Source: Bacillota bacterium (GTDB taxonomy: Bacteria; Bacillota; Sulfobacillia; UBA3575; DUQP01). From it: a stretch of DNA of 64,000 nt. Position 1 is the first letter of the stretch. Each line of letters opens with the position of its first letter. The notes under the pieces were generated by a model, which saw only the letters and a list, made by a program, of their open reading frames with translations, made no database searches and was not told the DNA's origin. The stretch covers positions 7,152 to 71,151 of the forward strand of contig DUQP01000036.1 of assembly GCA_012837735.1 (NCBI GenBank), read 5' to 3'. The position numbers were made by a program, and so were the translations under genes. This document shows, piece after piece, positions 1,352 to 23,736 of this stretch.

Positions 1352-1576
1352 CTATGTCACCTCCTCACCAAACACAAAAAGCCGAGCTCGCTCACTCGGC
1401 CCAACAGTCCCTAAGACTGGAAATAGATATTTTTCGGCAATTGAAAAGAAAACGCAGATCCCAGTATACCTATTGTCTATATCCTAAGACCCGTCGTCTT
1501 TATCAATCAAAAGGCGCCAAGCGCCGGAAAAATATCAACATGAGCCGAGCGCAACAGTTCAGAACCAATTTTAAAC

Positions 1577-2071
1577 TTACTTGTCCGAAATGTCAAGAAA
1601 TGCCTTCCCGCTTCCATCTGGTTCAGCATAGAGCTTCCTCAAGACAGCATCCACATCGGCGCCGCTAAATCCCCGCCGGTACAGAAAACCGCTTAAGCGG
1701 CGCAACTCTCTTTTGGTCGGGCTTTTGCCCTGAGCGCGTTGCCGCGCCAAAGCCAGGGCTAAATCTCGTTCATCATGCAATGGTGCACAATTGTTTAACA
1801 CTGCCTCCACAATCTCATCGGCCACACCTTTGTCCCGCAGTTCCTGGCGCAAACGCCTTTTTCCCATCGATTTCAAACGCAACCTGTTTGTGACCCAATA
1901 CTCAGCAAACGCCCTGTCATCGAGATATTGGCATTCGCTCAGATGCTTAACGACAGCACTGATTGCCTCTTCATCATATCCCGCCTGCTGCAAACGTTTG
2001 CGCAATTCAGCTTTCGCATAGGGCCGCCTGGCCAAAAGGCGCAGGGCCTTGCTCAAAACCCTATTCCCCAT
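1577..2071 (-). CDS. recX: RecA regulator RecX
   Basis: 164 aa, helical-repeat protein directly downstream of recA with a 1-nt stop/start junction; RecX-like repeats (YLDDRAFAEYW..). Confidence 0.8.
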   Translation of the reverse strand: MGNRVLSKALRLLARRPYAKAELRKRLQQAGYDEEAISAVVKHLSECQYLDDRAFAEYWVTNRLRLKSMGKRRLRQELRDKGVADEIVEAVLNNCAPLHDERDLALALARQRAQGKSPTKRELRRLSGFLYRRGFSGADVDAVLRKLYAEPDGSGKAFLDISDK

Positions 2072-3099
2072 TATTTAGCTTCTTCGATCGCTGCTTTTCT
2101 CTCAAGCCGGGGCAAGGAACAGGCTTCCCGGATCCTGTTTTCTATTTCCGCTGCCACTTCCGCGTTCTCCTTTAAGAATTGCCGGGCATTCTCACGCCCC
2201 TGGCCCAGTCTGGTTTCCCCATAGGAATACCAGGTTCCGCTTTTCGAGAGCAATTTAAAGTTTTGCGCCAAGTCCAGGATGTCCCCCTCCCGGGAAATCC
2301 CTAGGCCATACAGAATATCAAACTCGGCCTGTTTAAACGGTGGCGCCATCTTGTTTTTGACGATCTTCACCCGGGTGCGGCTACCGATAATATCCGCCCC
2401 TTGCTTCAATGCCTCTATTTTGCGCACCTCTAACCTGACTGAGGAATAAAACTTCAAAGCCCGCCCCCCGGGCGTAACTTCCGGATTGCCGAACATCACT
2501 CCAACTTTTTCCCGGATCTGGTTAATGAATATCGCTGTGGTTTGCGACTTACTGATCGCACCCGTCAATTTCCGCAAGGCCTGCGACATCAAACGGGCCT
2601 GCAGTCCCACATGCGAATCCCCCATCTCCCCTTCTATCTCCGCTCTCGGTACGAGCGCCGCCACAGAATCCACCACGATCACATCCACAGCACCGCTGCG
2701 CACCAGGGCTTCGGCGATCTCAAGGGCTTGTTCGCCGGTGTCAGGCTGGGAGATGAGCAAGTTGTCAATATCCACCCCCAACCGGCGCGCATACAATGGG
2801 TCCAGAGCATGCTCGGCATCAATGAACGCCGCCACTCCCCCTGCCTGTTGAGCTTCAGCGATAATGTGCAGGGCGACCGTCGTTTTGCCGGACGCCTCCG
2901 GACCATACACCTCCACCACCCGGCCGCGCGGTACTCCGCCGATTCCCAGTGCGATATCCAAAGAAAGCGACCCGGTTGGTATTACAGCCACATTCAGGTA
3001 GGCACTTGCCTCACCCATCTTCATAATGGAGCCCTTCCCAAATTGTCTCTCAATCTGGGCCAGGGCCAACTCCAGAGCTTTTGCACGTTCAGACATCAC
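2071..3099 (-). CDS. recA: Recombinase RecA
   Basis: 342 aa; Walker A (GPEASGKTT), L1/L2 loops, typical N-terminus [19 protein letters not shown]. Confidence 0.97.
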
Positions 3100-3160
3100 G
3101 GCGCCACTCTGCGAACCAGTGGCTTCTCACCTGCCTCAATATAAATTACCATTTTTAACC

Positions 3161-3189
3161 AATATACCACAGGCCCCGCTACCTGCCAA
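3161..3189 (-). promoter_or_regulatory. Putative sigma-A promoter of recA (-35 TTGGCA, 17-nt spacer, extended -10 TGGTATATT)
   Basis: Reverse complement of 3161-3189 reads TTGGCA-N17-TATATT with a TGn extension; about 55 nt upstream of the recA start. Confidence 0.4.
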
Positions 3190-3775
3190 TCCAGTGGACG
3201 GTTGCAAGCGGAATATAATTGGGACCTGCCCGCCCGAGTCGGCTCTCAAACAGAGTCATTCCTTTCACCGGGCATGATACCCGCTCATGAGCCAACTCAT
3301 TCGGCAGGGCCGGTAGCTTTACCAGTTCCCGGCTGCGGCCGATCGTTAAATGGGGTGTAAATGGGCGTTCGTCGCGAGGGAAACCCCTGGCCGCCAAATT
3401 GGTTTCTACTTGTTGCTGTAATAATCGCAATTCAGCAGCTCCAACGCCCACACCTAACCACAGGGTGCGGGCCCGGGAGCTGTTTGGAAAACCACCCACC
3501 CCACCGAGCACAGCCACAAATTCTTTTTGCCCGAGGGCGCTCTCTTGCAGGACAGCCAGCAACTCTGGTAATTGCCCGATCTCCGTGTCCCCCAAGAATT
3601 TAATGGTGATATGCATCGCTTCCGGCGCCACCCATCTCACCGGCCCCACACCGGTCAGAGCACTTTGGCAACGCCTGGCCAGGTCGCGCACATCATCATC
3701 TACCGTGACGGCCACGAACAACCGCTTCGTCAAACCGAGTCCTCCCCTATTACTCCTCTTTGCCTGTTTCGCCAT
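3179..3775 (-). CDS. thpR: RNA 2',3'-cyclic phosphodiesterase / 2'-5' RNA ligase (LigT/ThpR family)
   Basis: 198 aa with two H-x-T/S-x motifs (HITIKF and HLTIGRS), characteristic of the 2H phosphoesterase family. Confidence 0.75.
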   Translation of the reverse strand: MAKQAKRSNRGGLGLTKRLFVAVTVDDDVRDLARRCQSALTGVGPVRWVAPEAMHITIKFLGDTEIGQLPELLAVLQESALGQKEFVAVLGGVGGFPNSSRARTLWLGVGVGAAELRLLQQQVETNLAARGFPRDERPFTPHLTIGRSRELVKLPALPNELAHERVSCPVKGMTLFESRLGRAGPNYIPLATVHWIGR

Positions 3776-3922
3776 CCCGTATCCTATTCCTGCCCATTTA
3801 CCGGCCAGCGCACCCCATCAATGTGGCAAAGCTCCCAGACGGTTCAAACGCATCAATAAATCCATGCCAACGGTGGCCAAGAAAAACCCCGGGCCAGATC
3901 CTAAAGCCCCGAGGGTAACAAA

Positions 3923-5203
3923 TCACGACCGATCATGATCAGGGCTCACTTCTCTGGCACCCTCTTCGGTCGCCAATATATATTTTCGCAACAGCATAAG
4001 GGCTTCCCACACTGCTCTTTGTCTAACTTCGTTGCGCTGACCGGGGAACCAACGTCGCCATTGTTTTGTACCAGCTGGGCCAGCCACCGCGATGTGAACT
4101 AATCCGACCGGCTTTTCCGGGCTACCGCCCCCCGGTCCGGCCACTCCGGTGATGCCCACCGCCAGCGTCGTCCCCAGCCGGACCCGCCCGCCTTCCGCCA
4201 AAGCTACCGCCACCTGCGGGCTAACAGCCCCATGTGCCCTGATCAGGTTTGCCGGAACGCCGGCCAATGTTTCTTTCGCCCGGTTAGCATAACATACCAA
4301 GCCCCCGACAAAAACATCCGAAGCCCCCGGCACTGCCGTCAACCGTCCTGCCAAACGACCACCCGTGCAGGACTCCACGCTGGCCAGTGTCGCTCCCCGG
4401 CGGCGCAGTTCATCCAGTATGACTTGCTCCAGCGTTTCATCATCGCTTCCGTAAATCAAGGTGCCCAAGCGGGCGCGCAATTTTTGTTCCAATGGTTCCA
4501 ATAACCGCTGGGCCATTGCCGAGTCATCGGCCTTGGCTGTCAGGCGCAGACGCACTTCCCCCAGCGCAGCCAACGGAGCCAATGTGGGGTTGGTCTGCTC
4601 CGCTAACAAATCGCTGATCCGTTCCACTAAAGCGGACTCCCCAATCCCACACAACCGCAGGCTACGGGAAACAATTACTTGTTTGCCGCAGCCGTGCCGA
4701 CGCAAGTGTGCAACCGCTTGCTTCCAAACCGCCCGCACCTCATGGGGTGGTCCCGGCAATGATATGACAATCTTCCCTTCGTGTGGGACAAACAACCCAG
4801 GCGCCGTGCCGACCGGGTTGGCCAGACACACTCCACCGCTCGGCCGCAGCGCCTGCTTGCGATTGGCTTCCGGCATGCCCAAACCACGTTGGGCAAAAAA
4901 CTCCTCCAGGGCGGCCATGGCATCCTGGTCCACTACCAGCTCCCGATTCAACATCAGGGCCACCGCCTCCCGGGTCAGATCGTCTTCCGTCGGGCCCAAG
5001 CCGCCCGTCGTTATTACCAGGTCCACTCTTTGCAAAGCCTCCCGGAGGGCTTCCACCAGCCGCTCCAGGTTATCACCGACCGTAGTTTGCCGATGGACAT
5101 CGACTCCGAGCGCAGCGAGTTCCTGCGCCAGGAATACCGCGTTCGTATTCAAAATCTCACCGAGCAACAGCTCGGTCCCAACAAAAATCAACTCGCCGCG
5201 CAT
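3923..5203 (-). CDS. cinA: Competence/damage-inducible protein CinA (MoCF-binding + NMN deamidase domains)
   Basis: 426 aa; N-terminal MoCF-biosynthesis-like domain (ELIFVGTELLLGEILNTNA) and C-terminal CinA/PncC domain; position upstream of recA as in Bacillus. Confidence 0.9.
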   Translation of the reverse strand: MRGELIFVGTELLLGEILNTNAVFLAQELAALGVDVHRQTTVGDNLERLVEALREALQRVDLVITTGGLGPTEDDLTREAVALMLNRELVVDQDAMAALEEFFAQRGLGMPEANRKQALRPSGGVCLANPVGTAPGLFVPHEGKIVISLPGPPHEVRAVWKQAVAHLRRHGCGKQVIVSRSLRLCGIGESALVERISDLLAEQTNPTLAPLAALGEVRLRLTAKADDSAMAQRLLEPLEQKLRARLGTLIYGSDDETLEQVILDELRRRGATLASVESCTGGRLAGRLTAVPGASDVFVGGLVCYANRAKETLAGVPANLIRAHGAVSPQVAVALAEGGRVRLGTTLAVGITGVAGPGGGSPEKPVGLVHIAVAGPAGTKQWRRWFPGQRNEVRQRAVWEALMLLRKYILATEEGAREVSPDHDRS

Positions 5204-6880: not shown

Positions 6881-8401
6881 TCAAGCAGGACCCTGCCGAA
6901 CCTGCCAGTCACTTGACGGAAGTGGCTGGGGCTCTAGCAGCATGGAGCGCAACTCCTCGCCGGTCAACATTTCATCATGTAACAGTCGATTTGCCACTAT
7001 CTCCAACACGCCCCGGAATTGGCACAGCAGCCTGTGGGCCCGTTCCTCCTCCCGGCGCAACACAGCGGTGATCATGTCATGCACCTGTTGCGCAGGCACT
7101 GTTTCCTCATCGATCACGCCCAATGGTGATAATCCGCCATAGACAATCCGTTTTGCCAAACCAAGGGCATTTTGAAAATCATTCCCCGCCCCGGTGCTGC
7201 GGTTGCCAAACATCAACTCTTCCGCCACGGCACCTCCCAGGGCGACACAAATTTCATCCTCCAGCATTTCCTTAGTATACAAATACACATCCTCGGCCGG
7301 TGTGTTGCGCACATATCCAAGCGTAGCGCCGCGCGGGGAAATGTTGATACTGGACACATACCCGGGCTTCAATACCTCGCCCACCAAGGCATGCCCTCCT
7401 TCATGGAAGGCAACCCGGCGCAATTCACTTTGCGAGGGCTGTCTGTCGATCCGCTCGCCCAACATGACTTTTTCGATCGCCTCGATAAATTCTGTCTGGC
7501 CAATCTCGCCCTTGCCTGCCCGGCGGGCTAAAATGGCAGCCTCGTTAGCCACGCTTTCGAGGTGGGCACCGGAGAAACCGAATGTTTGTCTGGCGATCTC
7601 ATGCAAATCAACATCTTCCGCCAATGGCTTGTTCCGTACATGTAGTGTTATGATCTGGTAGCGCGCTGTCTTATCCGGCAACTCCACCCGCACCACCCGG
7701 TCAAAGCGTCCCGGCCGGAGCAAAGCCTCATCAAGTAAATCAGCCCGGTTTGTCGCACCCACCACCAATACGAGCACCTCATGCTCAGAGACCGTCAAGC
7801 CATCCATTTCTACCAGTAGCTGGTTCAAGGTCTGATCATATTCCAGGTGCGAGGAATGCTTGCCGCGCTTGCCACCCAACACCTCCAACTCATCGATAAA
7901 AATGATGGCGCTTTTTTTCCCGCGCTTGCGCGCCTCTTCCCGCGCCTGGCGAAACACATCCCGTACCCGTTGCGCCCCCACCCCCGCGTAGACCTCAATG
8001 AACTCACTTCCAGAAGTCGCTATGAAAACAGAATCAGTGTAACTGGCCGCTGCTTTGGCCAGCATCGTCTTGCCGGTACCAGGTGGACCAACAAGCAAAA
8101 TGCCCTTTAAGGGCCTGATTCCCAAAGCCAGCAATGAATCCCGATCCCGCACAAAATCCAGTGCCTCCACCAATTCTTTTTTGGAGTTCTCCTGACCGCC
8201 GACGTCCTCAAAGGATACCGTCGGCACCTGCGAAGCCTGCAAAACCGTATGTTGTCGCCGGCGCAGCCCTTGGCTTCCGACCGTCAGGAACAGGAAATAT
8301 AACAAGCCGCCCAGGAAAAGCAGCGGAATGACATTGTATCCTTGGATGCCCAAAAAGATCAAACAAGCCAGCACCAACCCGATCCCAACGTCTTTTATCA
8401 A
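6881..8401 (-). CDS. Short FtsH-family AAA+ zinc metalloprotease (paralog; two close-set N-terminal TM helices, no periplasmic domain)
   Basis: 506 aa; Walker A GPPGTGKT, Walker B IIFIDELE, SRH region, M41 HEXXH (HEGGHALVG). About 100-150 aa shorter than canonical FtsH. Confidence 0.85.
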   Translation of the reverse strand: MIKDVGIGLVLACLIFLGIQGYNVIPLLFLGGLLYFLFLTVGSQGLRRRQHTVLQASQVPTVSFEDVGGQENSKKELVEALDFVRDRDSLLALGIRPLKGILLVGPPGTGKTMLAKAAASYTDSVFIATSGSEFIEVYAGVGAQRVRDVFRQAREEARKRGKKSAIIFIDELEVLGGKRGKHSSHLEYDQTLNQLLVEMDGLTVSEHEVLVLVVGATNRADLLDEALLRPGRFDRVVRVELPDKTARYQIITLHVRNKPLAEDVDLHEIARQTFGFSGAHLESVANEAAILARRAGKGEIGQTEFIEAIEKVMLGERIDRQPSQSELRRVAFHEGGHALVGEVLKPGYVSSINISPRGATLGYVRNTPAEDVYLYTKEMLEDEICVALGGAVAEELMFGNRSTGAGNDFQNALGLAKRIVYGGLSPLGVIDEETVPAQQVHDMITAVLRREEERAHRLLCQFRGVLEIVANRLLHDEMLTGEELRSMLLEPQPLPSSDWQVRQGPA

Positions 8402-16955: not shown

Positions 16956-18692
16956 CTACCGGGCGCTATGGACGGGGAATCGCACCCGGAACAACGTCCC
17001 TTTTCCCTCTTCGCTTTCCACCTCAACCTGGCCGTGATGTTGTTCCACCACACCTTTCACAATGCTCAATCCTAAACCACTGCCACTGACTCCCCTTTCG
17101 CCCTTGACACGATAAAACCGCTCAAATATGCGCGGGAGGTGTTGGGTTGGTATTCCCTGCCCTTCATCGCACACTTCCAACACCACCTCCAACGGTCGCC
17201 GCTCAATCCGCAACACTATCGTCCCCGGTGCCTGGCTATATTTGATTGCGTTACTGAGCAAATTGCTGATCACATGACCCAGCGCGATACTATCCCCCGA
17301 CATCATCGCCCGTTCATTCCCGGGGAAAATGGCTTTCAGTTCCAATCCTTTTTGAGCAGCTTGCGGACCATAACGGGCCAGGGCTTCTTTCGCCACCGTG
17401 ACCAAGTTGACACTTGTCAACCGTTGCCGGCTCACCCCTAAGTCGGCTTCGTTCAAAACTAGAATCCTTTCAATCATTTCCTCCAAATCCAGCGCCGCCT
17501 TGCCTATTTCCTCCAAATAGCTGTGACTTCGGTCAGCCTCATCTACTGCGGCGGCCAGTTGCACAAAACCGCTGATGGTCGCCAACGGTGTCTTTAGATC
17601 ATGTGTCACCCAACGCATGAACTCCCGGCGCGCTGCCTCCTGCTCCAACTCCCGGGACACATCCCAAATCGTTACCACCTTGCGTACCAGGGCCCCTGTG
17701 CTTTCCGGCTGCAATACCACCTGGTCAACTACAACCTCCACATCCCGAAATCCCTGTCCAGACCGCAGACGATGTCGAAAGCGCCTGCCCGGCAACACCG
17801 GGCGGTCATGTCTGTGATCATCAAACAGCCCCCAAAATGACATGCCTTGCAATTCTCGATGCGTGCGGCCAGTCATCTCCTGAAAAGCAGCATTCACTGC
17901 CAGCAACCTGTCCTTTTCATCCAGCAAAGCCAACCCCGCCCCACAACTGGCAAAGACCGCCTCCCACTGTTCGTTTTTTTGAATGCTGGCCTCCTGTAAT
18001 TCACCATCAAACAAAACCATAGAACGGGTAATCAATAATGGTGCCAAAAAGGCCAAAATTCCCATGATGCCCATACCCTCATACATCTTGACCAACAAAA
18101 AGGCCATTCCCGCCAATAACGCCTGATTAGGCCATTTCCGTCGCCACTGTGCCCATATCCGTTTCAGGCCATCAAAACCATTGGCTATAATTCCTTCTCC
18201 CAAGCGCAAAAAGGAAGGTCCGCAGCACACGACGATCGCCGCTAAGAGCACCCCCAGGGGATACAAAAGTCCAACCCAGGCAACTGCCAGTACTGCCGGG
18301 ATCCCCACTGTCCCAATGGCAAATAGCATCCGCTCCCACCGTCTTTGCCATGGCTGTACGGCCTGCAAAATGGCGGGCAATACTAACACGAACAGCCCGT
18401 GCGTGCCGAACAAAATGATGGCCATTAATCCCACCGCCGGCGTGACAGTAATAGACATCCCATACAGCAAGCGCACCGGCACAAATTCCATTAATGTGGC
18501 CAGCAAGGTTAAAACCATGATCGTGAACGACGGCACTCCTGCTTGCACAAGAGCAACCAACAAGGAGATCGTACCACCAAACCCAATCATCCTGTTGTAA
18601 ATCGTTTCCCATTTGATTCTTGCCCTCATCTGATAACCCCCAGGCCTAAACAGCTTTTTGGGCAATACTAAACTGGCAGGAATTTCGTTCAC
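16956..18692 (-). CDS. Orphan sensor histidine kinase (about 6 TM + PAS + HisKA + HATPase_c)
   Basis: 578 aa; H-box VTHDLKTPLATISGF, N/G boxes in the C-terminal ATPase domain; no adjacent response regulator. Confidence 0.85.
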   Translation of the reverse strand: MNEIPASLVLPKKLFRPGGYQMRARIKWETIYNRMIGFGGTISLLVALVQAGVPSFTIMVLTLLATLMEFVPVRLLYGMSITVTPAVGLMAIILFGTHGLFVLVLPAILQAVQPWQRRWERMLFAIGTVGIPAVLAVAWVGLLYPLGVLLAAIVVCCGPSFLRLGEGIIANGFDGLKRIWAQWRRKWPNQALLAGMAFLLVKMYEGMGIMGILAFLAPLLITRSMVLFDGELQEASIQKNEQWEAVFASCGAGLALLDEKDRLLAVNAAFQEMTGRTHRELQGMSFWGLFDDHRHDRPVLPGRRFRHRLRSGQGFRDVEVVVDQVVLQPESTGALVRKVVTIWDVSRELEQEAARREFMRWVTHDLKTPLATISGFVQLAAAVDEADRSHSYLEEIGKAALDLEEMIERILVLNEADLGVSRQRLTSVNLVTVAKEALARYGPQAAQKGLELKAIFPGNERAMMSGDSIALGHVISNLLSNAIKYSQAPGTIVLRIERRPLEVVLEVCDEGQGIPTQHLPRIFERFYRVKGERGVSGSGLGLSIVKGVVEQHHGQVEVESEEGKGTLFRVRFPVHSAR

Positions 18693-18750: not shown

Positions 18751-19566
18751 ATGGCATCATGTGCTGTCTTCGGGGGGAGCGACCCCCGTGCTGAAGTGTC
18801 ATCAGCTGTCTTTGCTTTAACTCCAGCTGAGTCAAAGCGTCTCATTGCCAAAGGTGTAGCAAATTTGCCGGAAGTGAAGGCCGCCCTACAAAAAGGCCGC
18901 GTCGTAATAGCAACCGGTTCCACCACCGGTTACGTAGCTGAAGAGATCCTTGGCCGGCAATTTGAACGGAAAAAATTTCTGTCCGGCCACATCTTTGATG
19001 GCCTGTTATGCGCCATGGGCGATCATCCCGCCCTGTATCCCTTTGTAATCATTGATGGTCAGGTAATCGATGTCCCACCAGAGGACATCCTGCCTGATTT
19101 TGAGGCCACAGACGTTTTTATCAAGAGCGCTAACGCTGTAGACATCAATGGACATGCCGGTGTCCTGATGGCAAATGAACTGGGTGGCACGATTGGGATG
19201 GCTTTAGGCATCCTCACTTCGCGCGGCGCTAATTTAATCGTTCCGGTCGGCATGGAAAAGATGATTCCTTCCGTAACCGAGGCCTCTCGGAGACTCGGTA
19301 CCAGAAGGGTGAAATATGGTTTGGAAAGCGCGGCGCTGGAAGGCAAAATTGGATTGATGCCACTCGTAACCGCTACCGTTATCACAGAGGTGACTGCCCT
19401 ACACCGTTTGTGTGATGTGGAAGTCTTCCACATTGCCTCCGGCGGCATCGGTGGCTCCGAAGGTTCTGTGGTCTTGCTGATAGAAGGTAAAGAAGAAAAC
19501 GTGCAATCCGCTCTCTCGCTGATCAAGGAAATTAAGGGCGAGCCTCCTTTTGGGCGCCCCTACTAA
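18751..19566 (+). CDS. Conserved hypothetical protein (function unknown), divergent from the histidine kinase
   Basis: 271 aa; RBS AAGGAGG 8 nt upstream; Gly-rich segments (GSTTGY, ASGGIGGSEGS); no family confidently recognised. Confidence 0.5.
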   Translation: MASCAVFGGSDPRAEVSSAVFALTPAESKRLIAKGVANLPEVKAALQKGRVVIATGSTTGYVAEEILGRQFERKKFLSGHIFDGLLCAMGDHPALYPFVIIDGQVIDVPPEDILPDFEATDVFIKSANAVDINGHAGVLMANELGGTIGMALGILTSRGANLIVPVGMEKMIPSVTEASRRLGTRRVKYGLESAALEGKIGLMPLVTATVITEVTALHRLCDVEVFHIASGGIGGSEGSVVLLIEGKEENVQSALSLIKEIKGEPPFGRPY

Positions 19567-19578
19567 AAAGAAATTGGC

Positions 19579-19603
19579 AAGGGGTCGCCCCTGGCGGCCC
19601 CTT
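19579..19603. terminator. Convergent intrinsic terminator (T-tract on minus strand, serving the GGDEF/HD-GYP gene; also ends the + gene)
   Basis: AAGGGGtCGCC-cctg-GCGGcCCCTT hairpin; minus-strand read-out is followed by TTTCTTTTT. Confidence 0.55.
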
Positions 19604-19605
19604 CC

Positions 19606-21267
19606 TCAGTTCAGAATCTTCCCTTCTTGCAACAAGGCGATGAAGCGGGCTGCCAAAACCGGGTCAAACTGTTTGCCTGCGCACATCTCAAACTCCTGAA
19701 TGATCTCCGGTAACGTTTTCGCTTCTTGATAAGGACGGTCATTCCACATAGCATCAAAACTGTCACAGATAGCCAACACTCGCGCGCCCAGCGGTATTTC
19801 CTCCCCCTTCAACCCTTGCGGATAGCCTTTGCCATCATACCTTTCATGGTGGTAAAGGATTATTGGTACCGCCGTACCCAGTGCCTTCACCGGTCGAACG
19901 ATCTCGGCCCCCCATTCCGGGTGACGTTTAATCACATCCCATTCCTCATCATTCAGAGGACCAGGCTTGTTTAAAATCTCATAACTGATTTCGATTTTCC
20001 CAACATCATGCAAGAAACCACCATAGGTCAGATCCGAGATTTCCTTCTCGCTAAGCCCGATTTCCCGCCCCAGGACCGTGGCGTATTGCATCACCCGCTC
20101 CGAGTGGCCATATGTATAACGGTCTTTTGCGTTGACCAGGTAAATGAGGGTCTTGAGAGTACTGATCAAAGCTAAATCTGACTCTGCCAATTCTGCCTTT
20201 AGCTCATCCAAAACGGAAAAATACAACTCAATCTTGTTCCGACTTTCAAACTTGGCTTTATACAAAGCGATATCGGCGACTTTCAGTAATTCTTCCTTGC
20301 TGGAAGCATGGTCCGGCAGGGTGGCCACGCCCACCGAAACCGACATCACTCCCCCCGGCTGCACCTCCTCCCCAAAAAACTCGTGCTCCTCAACCGCGTT
20401 GCGGATCCGCTCCGCCACCCGTACCGCCTCTCCACTGCCGGCTTTCGGCAAGATGACGACGAATTCGTCACCGCCATAACGGGCCAAAAATGAGTATTTG
20501 GGACAGACGGTGCGCATCACCTCTCCGACTTGATATAAAGCTTGATCACCCTGTTGGTGTCCAAAAACATCGTTATAGTGTTTGAAGTAGTCTATGTCGA
20601 GAAAAATGAGGGACAGCTTATCGCCCGCTGCTTTGGCTTTTTCCACTTCTTCCACAAGGCCTTCTTGAAAACGGCGGTGGTTGTATAGTGAGGTGACTTC
20701 ATCCAGATTGGCCTGTTCCGCCAATTTGGCACGGATCCTCCTTTCCGTGTCCACCAGGTCTCCCACCGACCAGGCCACGATGAACAAGATTGCTATCAAC
20801 ACCAAATCATGCTCCAGGTATTGATTGTAAGCCGCACCTGGCATCGACACAACGTCGCTTATAATCAAACCAATTAAAGAAGCGAAAGCTGCTGCGAATC
20901 CCATCCCTTTCCCGAACGAAACTGCAAACAATACTACGGGGATGAAATAGAGGCTCTTTAGATCACTTCTCTGCGCACCAGAAATATAAACGATGAATGA
21001 AATAATGAAGACCAGTACAAATAACAAAGCCCCGCGTGCCAACATCGTGGCCCGGGCTGGCAATGCTAAACGAGGATGAAGCAAAAATAATAAATAATAA
21101 ATGAGCAGGATAATACCAAAACAGCCAACCACCAAATACCTTTCCTGAATGATTTTTTCGGGAAGGTATCCAGCAATAGCGATAAAAAACAGAAGTATCG
21201 AGATAATGTTTATAATCGTCACAGTGTTGCTTACTTCAGTTGCTCTTTCTCGTTCAATCCAACTCAC
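19606..21267 (-). CDS. Membrane-bound GGDEF (diguanylate cyclase) + HD-GYP (c-di-GMP phosphodiesterase) protein; last gene of the agr-like operon
   Basis: 553 aa; GTG start with RBS GGGTGGG; about 5 N-terminal TM helices (1-170); GGDEF domain with intact RYGGDEF and no RxxD I-site; HD-GYP with HSERV...HDVGK...HHERYDGKGYP. Confidence 0.85.
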   Translation of the reverse strand: MSWIERERATEVSNTVTIINIISILLFFIAIAGYLPEKIIQERYLVVGCFGIILLIYYLLFLLHPRLALPARATMLARGALLFVLVFIISFIVYISGAQRSDLKSLYFIPVVLFAVSFGKGMGFAAAFASLIGLIISDVVSMPGAAYNQYLEHDLVLIAILFIVAWSVGDLVDTERRIRAKLAEQANLDEVTSLYNHRRFQEGLVEEVEKAKAAGDKLSLIFLDIDYFKHYNDVFGHQQGDQALYQVGEVMRTVCPKYSFLARYGGDEFVVILPKAGSGEAVRVAERIRNAVEEHEFFGEEVQPGGVMSVSVGVATLPDHASSKEELLKVADIALYKAKFESRNKIELYFSVLDELKAELAESDLALISTLKTLIYLVNAKDRYTYGHSERVMQYATVLGREIGLSEKEISDLTYGGFLHDVGKIEISYEILNKPGPLNDEEWDVIKRHPEWGAEIVRPVKALGTAVPIILYHHERYDGKGYPQGLKGEEIPLGARVLAICDSFDAMWNDRPYQEAKTLPEIIQEFEMCAGKQFDPVLAARFIALLQEGKILN

Positions 21268-21295
21268 ATTAACCCACCCACAGGGTTTTCTAACG

Positions 21296-21329
21296 CTTAC
21301 CGGGGGCTAAGGAACAGGCCCCCGGTAAG
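21296..21329 (-). promoter_or_regulatory. Perfect 12-bp stem-loop in the agrD-to-GGDEF intergenic spacer (possible partial terminator or RNA-processing element)
   Basis: CTTACCGGGGGC-taaggaacag-GCCCCCGGTAAG; no U-tract follows on the minus strand. Confidence 0.5.
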
Positions 21330-21357
21330 TGTCGCTATTACTAAAAAATCTTATTGT

Positions 21358-21492
21358 TTACCATTTCTGCAGAGCCTTGGGTACATCCGGCTGATAGAAA
21401 TTCCAGAAACAAGCCGATGACGCAGTGACAGTAGCCAAGAGTGTCAACACGGAAACGGCCATTAACAAAACACTCTTCCACATCTTACGCAT
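21358..21492 (-). CDS. agrD: AgrD-like autoinducing peptide precursor (44 aa; predicted thiolactone core CFWNF)
   Basis: Not in the ORF track (<60 aa). ATG at 21492 with RBS AAGGGGGTG; protein MRKMWKSVLLMAVSVLTLLATVTASSA-CFWNF-YQPDVPKALQKW. It has an amphipathic leader, a Cys-containing pentapeptide, and a conserved AgrD C-terminal tail (P-x-x-P-K-x-L); it lies 15 nt downstream of agrB. Confidence 0.8.
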   Translation of the reverse strand: MRKMWKSVLLMAVSVLTLLATVTASSACFWNFYQPDVPKALQKW

Positions 21493-21507
21493 GGATTACA
21501 CCCCCTT

Positions 21508-22128
21508 TCATCTAATACCAATTTGCAACAGGAACCTGTCAATAAGTGAAATCATCTTCACTCCTAGCGGAGTAATTGCGAAAACTTGAAATGCAGCTCC
21601 AAACAAGAGTGCAATCGTAATAGAGTCGTTTTTTGCCATCAGGCTAACACTCGCAATCAGCAATACCACTACAAAAGCAATTAGTCTCAGACGGGAACGA
21701 TGCAGACTATTTTTTATCGGTTTATTAGGTGCTTCCGCCGGTGCCCAAAGGTGCACGGCGACCAGCAAAACCATAGTAACAATAAACACCAGCAAAGTGG
21801 CTTGAAAAGAATTTAATACACCGCCCAGGAAATGGCTGAAAAGAGCCAAAGGAGCAAAAATAATTGACGCCACCGCACAGCGAATACCAGCCGAACAGTG
21901 CCCTCCCCCAGCGAATGTACGCACCAACGCACCAGACAGCATACATAGAAAAGTGAGCAATCCTACTCCAAAAAATAAACCGACAGCCACTGCTAACACA
22001 AAACCCAGTAATCCAATGAACACTAATTCTAACGAATAAGTGACGATTTCGTACTGGTCATGATTTAGGTCGCACTGCCCTTTAATAGCATCGGCAGCTC
22101 TCATTGCTAATTGAGAGGTGTCAAACAC
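21508..22128 (-). CDS. agrB: AgrB family membrane peptidase (AgrD-processing enzyme)
   Basis: 206 aa polytopic; GTG start overlapping the stop of the upstream gene; motif R-TFAGGGH-CSAGIR-C-AVAS aligns with the AgrB R..GG.H(+7)....C(+14)...S(+18) catalytic His/Cys signature. Confidence 0.85.
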   Translation of the reverse strand: MFDTSQLAMRAADAIKGQCDLNHDQYEIVTYSLELVFIGLLGFVLAVAVGLFFGVGLLTFLCMLSGALVRTFAGGGHCSAGIRCAVASIIFAPLALFSHFLGGVLNSFQATLLVFIVTMVLLVAVHLWAPAEAPNKPIKNSLHRSRLRLIAFVVVLLIASVSLMAKNDSITIALLFGAAFQVFAITPLGVKMISLIDRFLLQIGIR

Positions 22129-22129
22129 A

Positions 22130-22597
22130 TTATCCTCTCCCCTTGATGCTACGTTTTCCGGTTCCGCACATTATCTTTATCAACCAGGCAATCAAAAACA
22201 TTGCGCCTGGGCACATCAAACCAAACAACGTTCTCAAGCCCGCATGATTCATAATGCCATCGTAAGACATGCCAAATACCCCGATGGCTAACGCAAACAT
22301 TATCGTCTCAAGCACCGCCAGAGTACCAGATGTGACTAGAGCGGCTCCAAACGCTTTGCTAACTTTAGCCTTTAACCGCCAACATATCAACAAAACCATC
22401 CAACCCACTAGAATGATGGAATGAACGCCAAACGATAACGGTAATTGTCTGACTATGAAACCCATGACAGCGATTAGCAATCCGATTGTCAACAGATCAT
22501 CTAGTCTAAATCTGAATCTGAAGATGGTTAAGCCAAAATACGCCATTGCTATGCCTTCTAGGATGCCTTGAAAAAAAAAGAGTAAGGTTTGATACAC
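22130..22597 (-). CDS. Small polytopic membrane protein (4 TM), first gene of the agr-like operon; function unknown
   Basis: 155 aa, GTG start with RBS GGAGGT; translationally coupled to agrB (TAATGTG junction); AT-rich. Confidence 0.5.
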   Translation of the reverse strand: MYQTLLFFFQGILEGIAMAYFGLTIFRFRFRLDDLLTIGLLIAVMGFIVRQLPLSFGVHSIILVGWMVLLICWRLKAKVSKAFGAALVTSGTLAVLETIMFALAIGVFGMSYDGIMNHAGLRTLFGLMCPGAMFLIAWLIKIMCGTGKRSIKGRG

Positions 22598-22788
22598 AAT
22601 TTTACCTCCGATTGTAGTTTACTTTATCCCTATATAAACAGAATTCTCCAACATTTGTAATGCATTACTGCTGAAAATTGTCATATCTAACAAAAGTCCA
22701 GTAAAATAAGAACAATTTTTGGGAAATTATTCTAGCTTATGTCAAAATATCCTTCTTTTCCTAGAGTATCTTTTTGAATTTATAATAA

Positions 22789-23736
22789 TTAATCCTCACC
22801 TACCACCTTCAACTCAGTTTCCAAGTCCACTGCATATTTTTTTCTAATTTCTGTTTGAACTAACTCGATTAGCTCCAAAACATCTTTCGCGGAAGCGCCG
22901 CCCCGATTGACAATGAAGCCAGCGTGTTTTTCGGAGACCTGGGCTCCGCCAACGCGCACACCCTTCAAACCGGCTGCTTCCACCATAGCCCCCACATAAT
23001 GTCCGGGAGGACGCTTGAAGACACTTCCCGCACTAGGCAGATCCAAGGGTTGTTTCGCTGCCCGTCGCAATGTGTAGTCCTCCATAGTAGCCTTAATCTG
23101 TTCAGCATCTCCAGAATGCAAGCCAAATGCCACCCGTACAATGACATGGCTGCCATCTTGCAAACTGCTGCGGCGATAATCAAAACCGAGATCTTTTTGA
23201 CTCCACTCGCAATAATCGCCGTCCTCGGTCAATACGCGCACTCTATCAACCACGTCAGCCATCTGGCCTCCGTAAGCCCCGGCATTCATATAGACAGCAC
23301 CACCGATGCTGCCCGGGATCCCAATGGCAAACTCCAAACCTGTCAACCCAGCCATGCATGCCGTGCTCGCTACTTCTTTCAAAGCTGCCGCGGCACCAGC
23401 CAGCACCCGTTCCCCAACCACTTCCACGGCGGAAAACACACCGGTCAACTTCACTACTACGCCGCGGATTCCGCCACCCCGCACCAGGAGGTTGCTACCG
23501 GCACCGATAATCAGTGGTTCGTGCCCTTTTCGGCAACAATCCATCCAAAGCCTGCGTAACGCTTGTTCCGTTTTTACTTCAACAAAACAATCCGCCGGTC
23601 CCCCAATGCCAAATGTGGTATGCCGGGACATAGGTTCCCAACAATACACTGAGGCATCAGCTCCAAGCAAGCGCTGTATTCGTTGGCACAACTGTTGTGC
23701 GGCCAGCTTTTTTTCGTCCATCGCTCGCACCCCCAC
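22789..23736 (-). CDS. murB: UDP-N-acetylenolpyruvoylglucosamine reductase MurB
   Basis: FAD-binding PCMH domain (RHTTFGIGGPAD) and C-terminal MurB domain. Confidence 0.85.
   Translation of the reverse strand: MGVRAMDEKKLAAQQLCQRIQRLLGADASVYCWEPMSRHTTFGIGGPADCFVEVKTEQALRRLWMDCCRKGHEPLIIGAGSNLLVRGGGIRGVVVKLTGVFSAVEVVGERVLAGAAAALKEVASTACMAGLTGLEFAIGIPGSIGGAVYMNAGAYGGQMADVVDRVRVLTEDGDYCEWSQKDLGFDYRRSSLQDGSHVIVRVAFGLHSGDAEQIKATMEDYTLRRAAKQPLDLPSAGSVFKRPPGHYVGAMVEAAGLKGVRVGGAQVSEKHAGFIVNRGGASAKDVLELIELVQTEIRKKYAVDLETELKVVGED

Follow-up and report, generated by a model that had tools for sequence, protein, structure and literature searches.

The agr loci of staphylococci (agrBDCA) encode an AgrB peptidase, an AgrD precursor with a Cys-x4 ring and, directly after agrD, a polytopic membrane receptor; a hypervariable block runs over agrB, agrD and the sensor half of the receptor gene, and the output half is conserved. 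An arrangement of this kind, with a candidate receptor, was also found in a 64,000-nucleotide (nt) stretch of DNA from a Bacillota bacterium (GenBank assembly GCA_012837735.1, contig DUQP01000036.1, forward-strand positions 7,152 to 71,151; hereafter the window, numbered from its first letter). Here a minus-strand cassette carries p155 (22130-22597; 155 amino acids [aa], a polytopic membrane protein of an uncharacterised family), agrB (21508-22128; 206 aa, membrane cysteine endopeptidase cyclising AgrD), agrD (21358-21492; 44 aa, precursor of an autoinducing peptide [AIP]) and a sensor-enzyme gene (19606-21267; 553 aa) in which a six-helix transmembrane (TM) domain is followed by GGDEF and HD-GYP domains. 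Unlike in staphylococcal agr, the proposed receptor is not an AgrC (HPK10) kinase, no AgrA/LytTR regulator is encoded in the window, the output is the fused GGDEF and HD-GYP pair, and the cassette has an additional gene, p155, before agrB and a hairpin between agrD and the receptor gene. Comparison of sequences across genomes leads us to read the locus, with a probability of roughly 0.65, as one example of an agr-type cassette that is widespread in Clostridia and related Bacillota and in which the adjacent sensor-enzyme would be the AIP receptor and would act on cyclic di-GMP (c-di-GMP). A first, sequence-only reading of the window had proposed that a polytopic domain in the AgrC slot couples AIP to c-di-GMP; this proposal is supported by conserved adjacency, by an output swap at the same position and by co-diversification with AgrD, a combination that is hard to explain otherwise.

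Three further groups of described systems were compared. The agr-like operon of Clostridium perfringens has the order CPE1563-CPE1562-agrB-agrD, with two genes for hypothetical membrane proteins before agrBD and no adjacent agrCA (PMC2706048). Clostridium cassettes of the order DUF5317-p155-agrB-agrD reproduce this layout (PMC2706048), the DUF5317 gene probably corresponding to CPE1563; the window has p155 and differs from the C. perfringens operon in having no DUF5317 gene. CPE1560, the gene after C. perfringens agrD, was not described in the papers found on that operon. Quorum signals are coupled directly, or nearly so, to c-di-GMP turnover in RpfR, the Burkholderia receptor for BDSF (Burkholderia diffusible signal factor), a PAS-GGDEF-EAL protein with receptor and enzyme in one polypeptide, and in RpfC/RpfG of Xanthomonas, where the diffusible signal factor (DSF) signal reaches an HD-GYP protein through a phosphorelay. 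The Rpf systems use fatty-acid signals, a cytoplasmic PAS domain or a phosphorelay, and belong to Gram-negative bacteria, whereas the cassette combines a presumed ribosomal cyclic peptide with a six-helix membrane domain in Gram-positive anaerobes. PilS-like 6TM and DUF4118 kinase modules likewise form N-terminal membrane domains of six helices in signalling proteins; to our knowledge, neither an agrBD context nor allelic hypervariability is a feature of these families. No description of agrBD next to a GGDEF/HD-GYP gene, or of this sensor domain, was found in the searchable full-text literature (some subscription papers lie outside it), and within that literature the earlier statement that a peptide-to-c-di-GMP link was undescribed was borne out. 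What is new here is apparently the class of receptor and the coupling to a second messenger, agr itself being classical.

Full-length orthologues of the sensor-enzyme were common in Clostridium and relatives (40-47% identity over 99% of length). Neighbourhood lookups seeded with the enzyme gave the order p155-AgrB-AgrD-enzyme in 8/8 loci (the source genome, the close relative L099 on a metagenomic contig, Oxobacter pfennigii, C. septicum, two C. sartagoforme-like contigs and two C. isatidis-like contigs), with flanks unrelated between lineages. A genome scan with the full-length enzyme alignment, which contains generic GGDEF/HD-GYP motifs, returned at least 80 loci, mostly unrelated. Among the matches listed, the membrane domain fell within the match at seven loci (C. 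estertheticum, Ammonifex, Halanaerobiales, Lachnospiraceae and three other metagenome-assembled genomes), and p155, AgrB and an AgrD with C-x4-[YH]QP..P lay directly upstream in 7/7; the 73 other GGDEF/HD-GYP loci among these matches served as a negative control, and AgrB was present at none of them. Lookups seeded with p155 recovered the full cassette in two C. estertheticum genomes (2/2). A metagenome scan seeded with AgrB (three-sequence alignment, motifs specific to this AgrB clade) returned 12 loci, and a membrane-domain gene followed agrD in all nine with sufficient DNA. Cassette order was kept in every relative that could be evaluated (Oxobacter, five Clostridium species, Ammonifex, Halanaerobiales, Lachnospiraceae and metagenomes), so that the recurrence of the agrBD-GGDEF linkage in relatives, posed earlier from the window alone, was confirmed by both the enzyme-seeded lookups and the scan.

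Cassettes of Clostridium sensu stricto were preceded by a gene for a DUF5317 membrane protein upstream of p155 (L004 6085-6630; L100 5321-5887; L103 3116-3664). At C. isatidis-type loci, luxS was located directly upstream of the DUF5317-p155-agrBD cassette (L105 1433-1894; L106 1450-1908), and in C. estertheticum, C. sartagoforme-like and C. isatidis-like loci (L100-L106) an AI-2E_transport (PF01594) gene was the first or second gene after the sensor-enzyme. The cassette is thus clustered with a second quorum-sensing system where luxS or AI-2E_transport genes accompany it.

The membrane domain was also found on histidine kinases. A profile of residues 1-185 matched 354 protein clusters among 1.8 billion representatives, and the best 150 of the 354 were classified by architecture with local hidden Markov models as TM-histidine kinase (43 clusters), TM-GGDEF-HD-GYP (42), TM-GGDEF (29, mostly fragments) and TM only (36, fragments). 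TM-kinase genes with visible context lay in agrD cassettes, downstream of agrD, in 3/3 cases (L096, L107, L010), and in L096 and L107 no other gene came in between. L096 carries two p155 paralogues, AgrB and AgrD, followed by a TM-PAS-HisKA-HATPase_c protein; the paralogues are in tandem upstream of agrB (3976-4440 and 4548-4997). In L107, AgrD (...SACVFFWYQPEEPKSL) is followed by a TM-PAS-kinase and then by the DUF5317 gene (2079-2627), which is thus downstream of the TM-kinase and not upstream of p155. In L010 (Halanaerobiales, 1465-4401), the cassette is followed by two sensor genes in tandem that share the membrane domain, with GGDEF-HD-GYP as the output of one and HisKA-HATPase_c as that of the second. 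These architectures suggest that the sensor domain behaves as a portable AIP-input module with a swappable output. Alternatively, the enzyme could be co-located with agrBD without being its receptor: it would respond to another cue, for example the state of the membrane or envelope, an unlinked two-component system would detect the AIP, and enzyme and agrBD would lie together because they are co-regulated or serve one physiological programme. This explanation appears rather unlikely to us, as it leaves unexplained why a kinase with the same membrane domain occupies the same position after agrD.

Allelic variation was examined by comparing closely related loci. Between the window and L099, nucleotide identity was 93-100% in murB and again from codon ~160 of the enzyme gene onwards, and 36-71% in a block in between (20781-22775) that runs from the presumed promoter region through p155, agrB and agrD into the sensor-enzyme gene, of which it takes in the first ~150-160 codons. 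At the protein level, MurB was 97% identical, p155 45%, AgrB 49% and AgrD 66% (predicted rings CFWNF and CWWNF); residues 1-150 of the enzyme were 47% identical, compared with 98% for residues 151-553. The C. isatidis-like pair L106 and L105 gave a similar profile, with 59% identity in p154 (the p155 orthologue), 50% in AgrB, 75% in AgrD (predicted rings CLWYG and CAWLA) and 48% in sensor residues 1-150 vs 93% in the rest of the enzyme. In the C. sartagoforme-like pair L103 and L104, p154 was 90% and AgrB 95% identical, AgrD was 98% identical with a single changed residue that falls inside the predicted ring (CFWAM / CWWAM), and sensor residues 1-150 were 59% identical vs 99% for the rest of the enzyme. 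Nucleotide divergence in this last pair was located in the first ~130 codons of the enzyme gene, with 97-100% identity elsewhere apart from three short dips outside the cassette and a mild dip in p154 (87-94%). Further groups among 117 full-length orthologues, including two C. sardiniense alleles and three C. isatidis-group alleles, had catalytic parts 94-100% identical and sensors 46-79% identical. The block pattern in three independent lineages matches the specificity groups of staphylococcal agr, and variation of the sensor alongside the peptide, as expected for a cognate receptor, suggests a direct peptide-to-c-di-GMP route. Co-location alone leaves two further observations unexplained: in three lineages the allele boundaries fall on or close to the junction of sensor and output, and one pair differs in the sensor and one residue of the AIP ring.

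Synonymous divergence (dS) between the window and L099 was 2.5-3.2 in the block and 0.06 outside; over the allele pairs it was 0.9-3.2 in the block and 0.04-0.10 in the flanks. This difference points to old alleles that recombination exchanges, as it does in staphylococcal agr. The ratio of nonsynonymous to synonymous divergence (dN/dS) in the block was 0.15-0.46, with dS saturated. GC content was 0.38-0.46 over ~20750-22999 and 0.50-0.58 in the flanks; the hypervariable block coincides almost exactly with this low-GC island, which had been recognised in the sequence-only reading and was confirmed, and its composition in the window fits an old allele imported by recombination. Sensor hypervariability could on this basis be unrelated to signalling, through recombination hitch-hiking beside variable agrBD or through an arms race with phage or bacteriocins directed at a membrane protein exposed on the surface: saturated dS in the block would reflect imported old alleles and not local positive selection, as would the dN/dS values, and the block is low in GC. 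We consider this very improbable. Hitch-hiking with agrB is disfavoured because the block in L103 and L104 covers the sensor alone. The same boundary recurs in independent lineages, the external loops of the modelled sensor domain, predicted at ~6-8 residues, would offer little for a phage to bind, and the kinase variants also speak against variability without a role in signalling.

The variable partners of the sensor could also be proteins. The membrane domain would then contact AgrB or p155 instead of the peptide, the enzyme would be part of an AIP-production complex (with c-di-GMP or the sensor gating AgrB, for example), and variability would track the protein partners. p155, AgrB and the sensor are all polytopic, are encoded by neighbouring genes and vary together in two of the three pairs. 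This possibility was judged quite improbable, since the L103 and L104 sensors are 59% identical while AgrB is 95% and p154 90% identical, and since the kinase variants imply an input-to-output signalling logic.

Several observations weigh against the adjacent sensor-enzyme as AIP receptor. In the C. estertheticum pair L100 and L101, the sensor differs little (92% vs 96%) while the predicted rings are CYWAS and CYFST and p155 and agrB dip to 76-83% nucleotide identity; a change of AIP with little change in the sensor is in line with an enzyme that is co-located only. Unlinked VirS/VirR in C. perfringens is reported to respond to AIP, which is a precedent for detection away from the agrBD locus, and C. 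perfringens agrD and its operon layout resemble this cassette. The C. perfringens AgrD tail, which we take to read CLWFT-HQPEEPKSL, fits the C-x4-[YH]QP..P pattern. The converse linkage, from AgrB to a membrane-domain gene, holds only within this AgrB clade.

Transcriptional organisation weighs on the same side. A perfect 12-bp stem-loop without a U-tract was located in the gap between agrD and the sensor-enzyme gene of the window (21296-21329, minus strand; arms CTTACCGGGGGC / GCCCCCGGTAAG). An equivalent hairpin was present in 21/21 cassettes examined (fold z-scores from -2.2 to -5.7). Many of these have a U-tract, and the one after agrD in L099 is a canonical terminator. This conserved and often terminator-like hairpin is a point for an enzyme that shares the locus without being the AIP receptor. 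Because it separates agrD from the enzyme gene, the single four-gene operon postulated earlier, with co-transcription of agrD and the sensor gene, is not established. p155-agrB-agrD looks like one transcription unit, as stop and start codons abut or overlap, and expression of the sensor gene probably depends on read-through or on a promoter of its own. The terminator claimed after the last gene comes down to a weak terminator-like hairpin 13 nt past the sensor-enzyme stop codon (19578-19593, minus strand), a consensus match only, and the regional count of such matches was not above shuffled expectation.

Domains of the 553-aa sensor-enzyme were assigned with Pfam and an AlphaFold model (pLDDT 80.6). 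The membrane sensor domain, the proposed AIP receptor module (codons 1-185; 20713-21267, minus strand), contains six membrane helices in the model (residues 2-34, 43-66, 71-95, 102-118, 120-141 and 149-187), in place of the five counted in the sequence-only reading; the sixth extends as a long helix into the GGDEF domain. Six helices with the N-terminus inside place the GGDEF domain in the cytoplasm. The GGDEF diguanylate cyclase domain (residues 186-345; 20233-20712, minus strand) matched PF00990 (E 8e-43), with RYGGDEF intact and, like the metal- and GTP-binding residues D224, D226, N232 and D241, invariant in 16 orthologues. The HD-GYP phosphodiesterase domain (residues 373-537; 19657-20151, minus strand) matched HD_5 (PF13487, E 2.4e-35), with HD and HHERYDGKGYP intact and H420, D421, H449, H473, H474, E475 and G479-P483 invariant in the same 16. 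The motifs of both domains had been called intact from the window alone, and this was confirmed. The RxxD I-site, an allosteric site that is frequent though not universal in diguanylate cyclases, is absent from the window enzyme (PKYS instead; residues 262-266, 20470-20484) and kept in most orthologues; because of this replacement, product inhibition of the window cyclase may be absent.

Similarity of the sensor domain to described families was low. The window protein scored 19-23 bits against 6TM_PilS (PF25323; gathering cut-off 27) and 21-24 bits against DUF4118 (PF13493; gathering cut-off 28.4), both below threshold. At E <= 0.1, 6TM_PilS was matched by 10 of the 16 orthologues (best 1.4e-7) and DUF4118 by eight (best 5.9e-8). 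No relative was found among PDB sequences. No AgrC, VirS or GdpS signal was found in NCBIfam and no sequence similarity to AgrC was detected, the search and the comparison containing no dedicated AgrC-sensor model. With sub-threshold family matches and no PDB relatives, the domain falls in no well-characterised family of sensors for non-peptide ligands; membership in such a family had been named in the sequence-only reading as an argument against its proposal. The remote PilS/DUF4118 likeness is itself a point for the enzyme being co-located without sensing AIP, as PilS/DUF4118 families are not known to bind cyclic peptides.

The proteins encoded by the three upstream genes were compared in the same way. 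AgrB matched PF04647 (E 4.6e-30), and its motif GG.H......C, with the catalytic His and Cys (H77, C84), was invariant in nine cassette AgrBs. AgrD matched TIGR04223 (E 7e-11; 42 bits vs a cut-off of 19) and, weakly, the Pfam AgrD model (E 0.029). Earlier assignments of an AgrB with its catalytic signature and of a 44-aa AgrD were both upheld by these matches. AgrD reads ...SSACFWNFYQPDVPKALQKW, with a predicted ring CFWNF followed by YQPDVPKAL; it has the precursor layout of an N-terminal amphipathic leader, a Cys/Ser-x4 ring and a charged C-terminal recognition tail, and the motif C-x4-[YH]QP-x(1,2)-P occurs in nearly all cassettes.

No Pfam or NCBIfam family was matched by p155, and a single-sequence search recovered p155 itself alone. 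With a profile from nine sequences, 302 homologues were found, every name given being "hypothetical"; R50, G57, E97, G126 and P130 were invariant and H59 nearly so. The AlphaFold2 model (pLDDT 80) has five long helices. Neither homology nor fold evidence supports a function. p155 was always immediately 5' of agrB, and its stop codon abutted or overlapped the AgrB start in every locus. Since p155 shares the hypervariability of AgrB and AgrD in two of the three pairs, a role in AIP biogenesis (peptide processing) or export would fit. Non-significant NCBIfam matches to SpoIIGA, the sigma-E processing peptidase, were recorded in 7 of 40 p155 family members (best E 0.011) and suggest a possible link to membrane proteases.

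The window was then considered around the cassette. All four minus-strand open reading frames (ORFs) listed in the sequence-only reading were present at the positions it gave. Neighbours of the cassette are the housekeeping genes murB, ftsK, clpP, frr, uppS, cdsA and recX. Upstream, the murB-p155 intergenic region (22598-22788, minus strand), which falls within the hypervariable block, is AT-rich as described before (GC ~0.38); its status as a promoter region is presumed, the sigma-70-like matches in it being weak (e.g., TTTATA-16-TACAAT at 22638-22611). No c-di-GMP riboswitch or other Rfam RNA was found at the locus, promoter region included. Regulators were searched for by a domain scan of 20 window ORFs of 164-578 aa, mostly regulator-sized, together with Pfam annotation over +/-10 kb. 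None of these ORFs was found to encode a response regulator or a LytTR protein, and neither an adjacent AgrC (HPK10) kinase nor an AgrA (LytTR) regulator was found in the window, in agreement with the earlier statement that both are lacking there. The sole kinase found near the cassette, two genes downstream (16956-18692, minus strand), is of the PAS-HisKA-HATPase_c type and not of the AgrC type. It is an orphan membrane kinase with ~6 TM helices, PAS, HisKA and HATPase_c, and no response regulator is close by; as a candidate paralogous sensor it was rejected, its membrane part being unrelated to the sensor domain. A 271-aa ORF without a Pfam match (18751-19566, plus strand), gene-called in the source genome, is convergent with the sensor-enzyme gene.

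With the sensor-enzyme as receptor, the cassette would work as follows. AgrB, probably together with p155, would process the 44-aa AgrD into a small thiolactone peptide with the predicted ring CFWNF. The six-helix N-terminal domain of the neighbouring 553-aa protein would sense this peptide within the membrane, and the signal would pass via the long TM6/linker helix to the GGDEF domain for synthesis and the HD-GYP domain for hydrolysis in the same polypeptide. Cell density would in this way be read out directly as a changed level of c-di-GMP, with no two-component phosphorelay in between. That AIP is the ligand of the sensor domain is inferred from the comparisons above, and which activity the ligand would favour, synthesis or hydrolysis, is not predictable from sequence.

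Sensing at clostridial loci with agrBD alone has been a puzzle since these loci were first catalogued, and the cassette names a candidate receptor at the locus, with two alternative outputs. We give slightly better than even odds to the following combination as a whole: that the "orphan" agrBD loci of many Clostridia and related Bacillota use a new class of AIP receptor, that this receptor is the hypervariable six-helix domain next to agrD, fused to GGDEF and HD-GYP or to a kinase, that the loci define strain-specific pherotypes like those of staphylococci, and that p155 is a new, obligatory factor of AIP biogenesis or export. The allele pairs are ready-made material for specificity swaps, notably L103 and L104 with their divergent sensors and single ring substitution. 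c-di-GMP controls motility and biofilm formation and, in clostridia, also toxin production and sporulation. If true, the reading proposed here would make this the first case of an agr-type peptide signal with a direct connection to c-di-GMP, and pherotype-like strain groups would exist in gut, food-spoilage and environmental Clostridium species.

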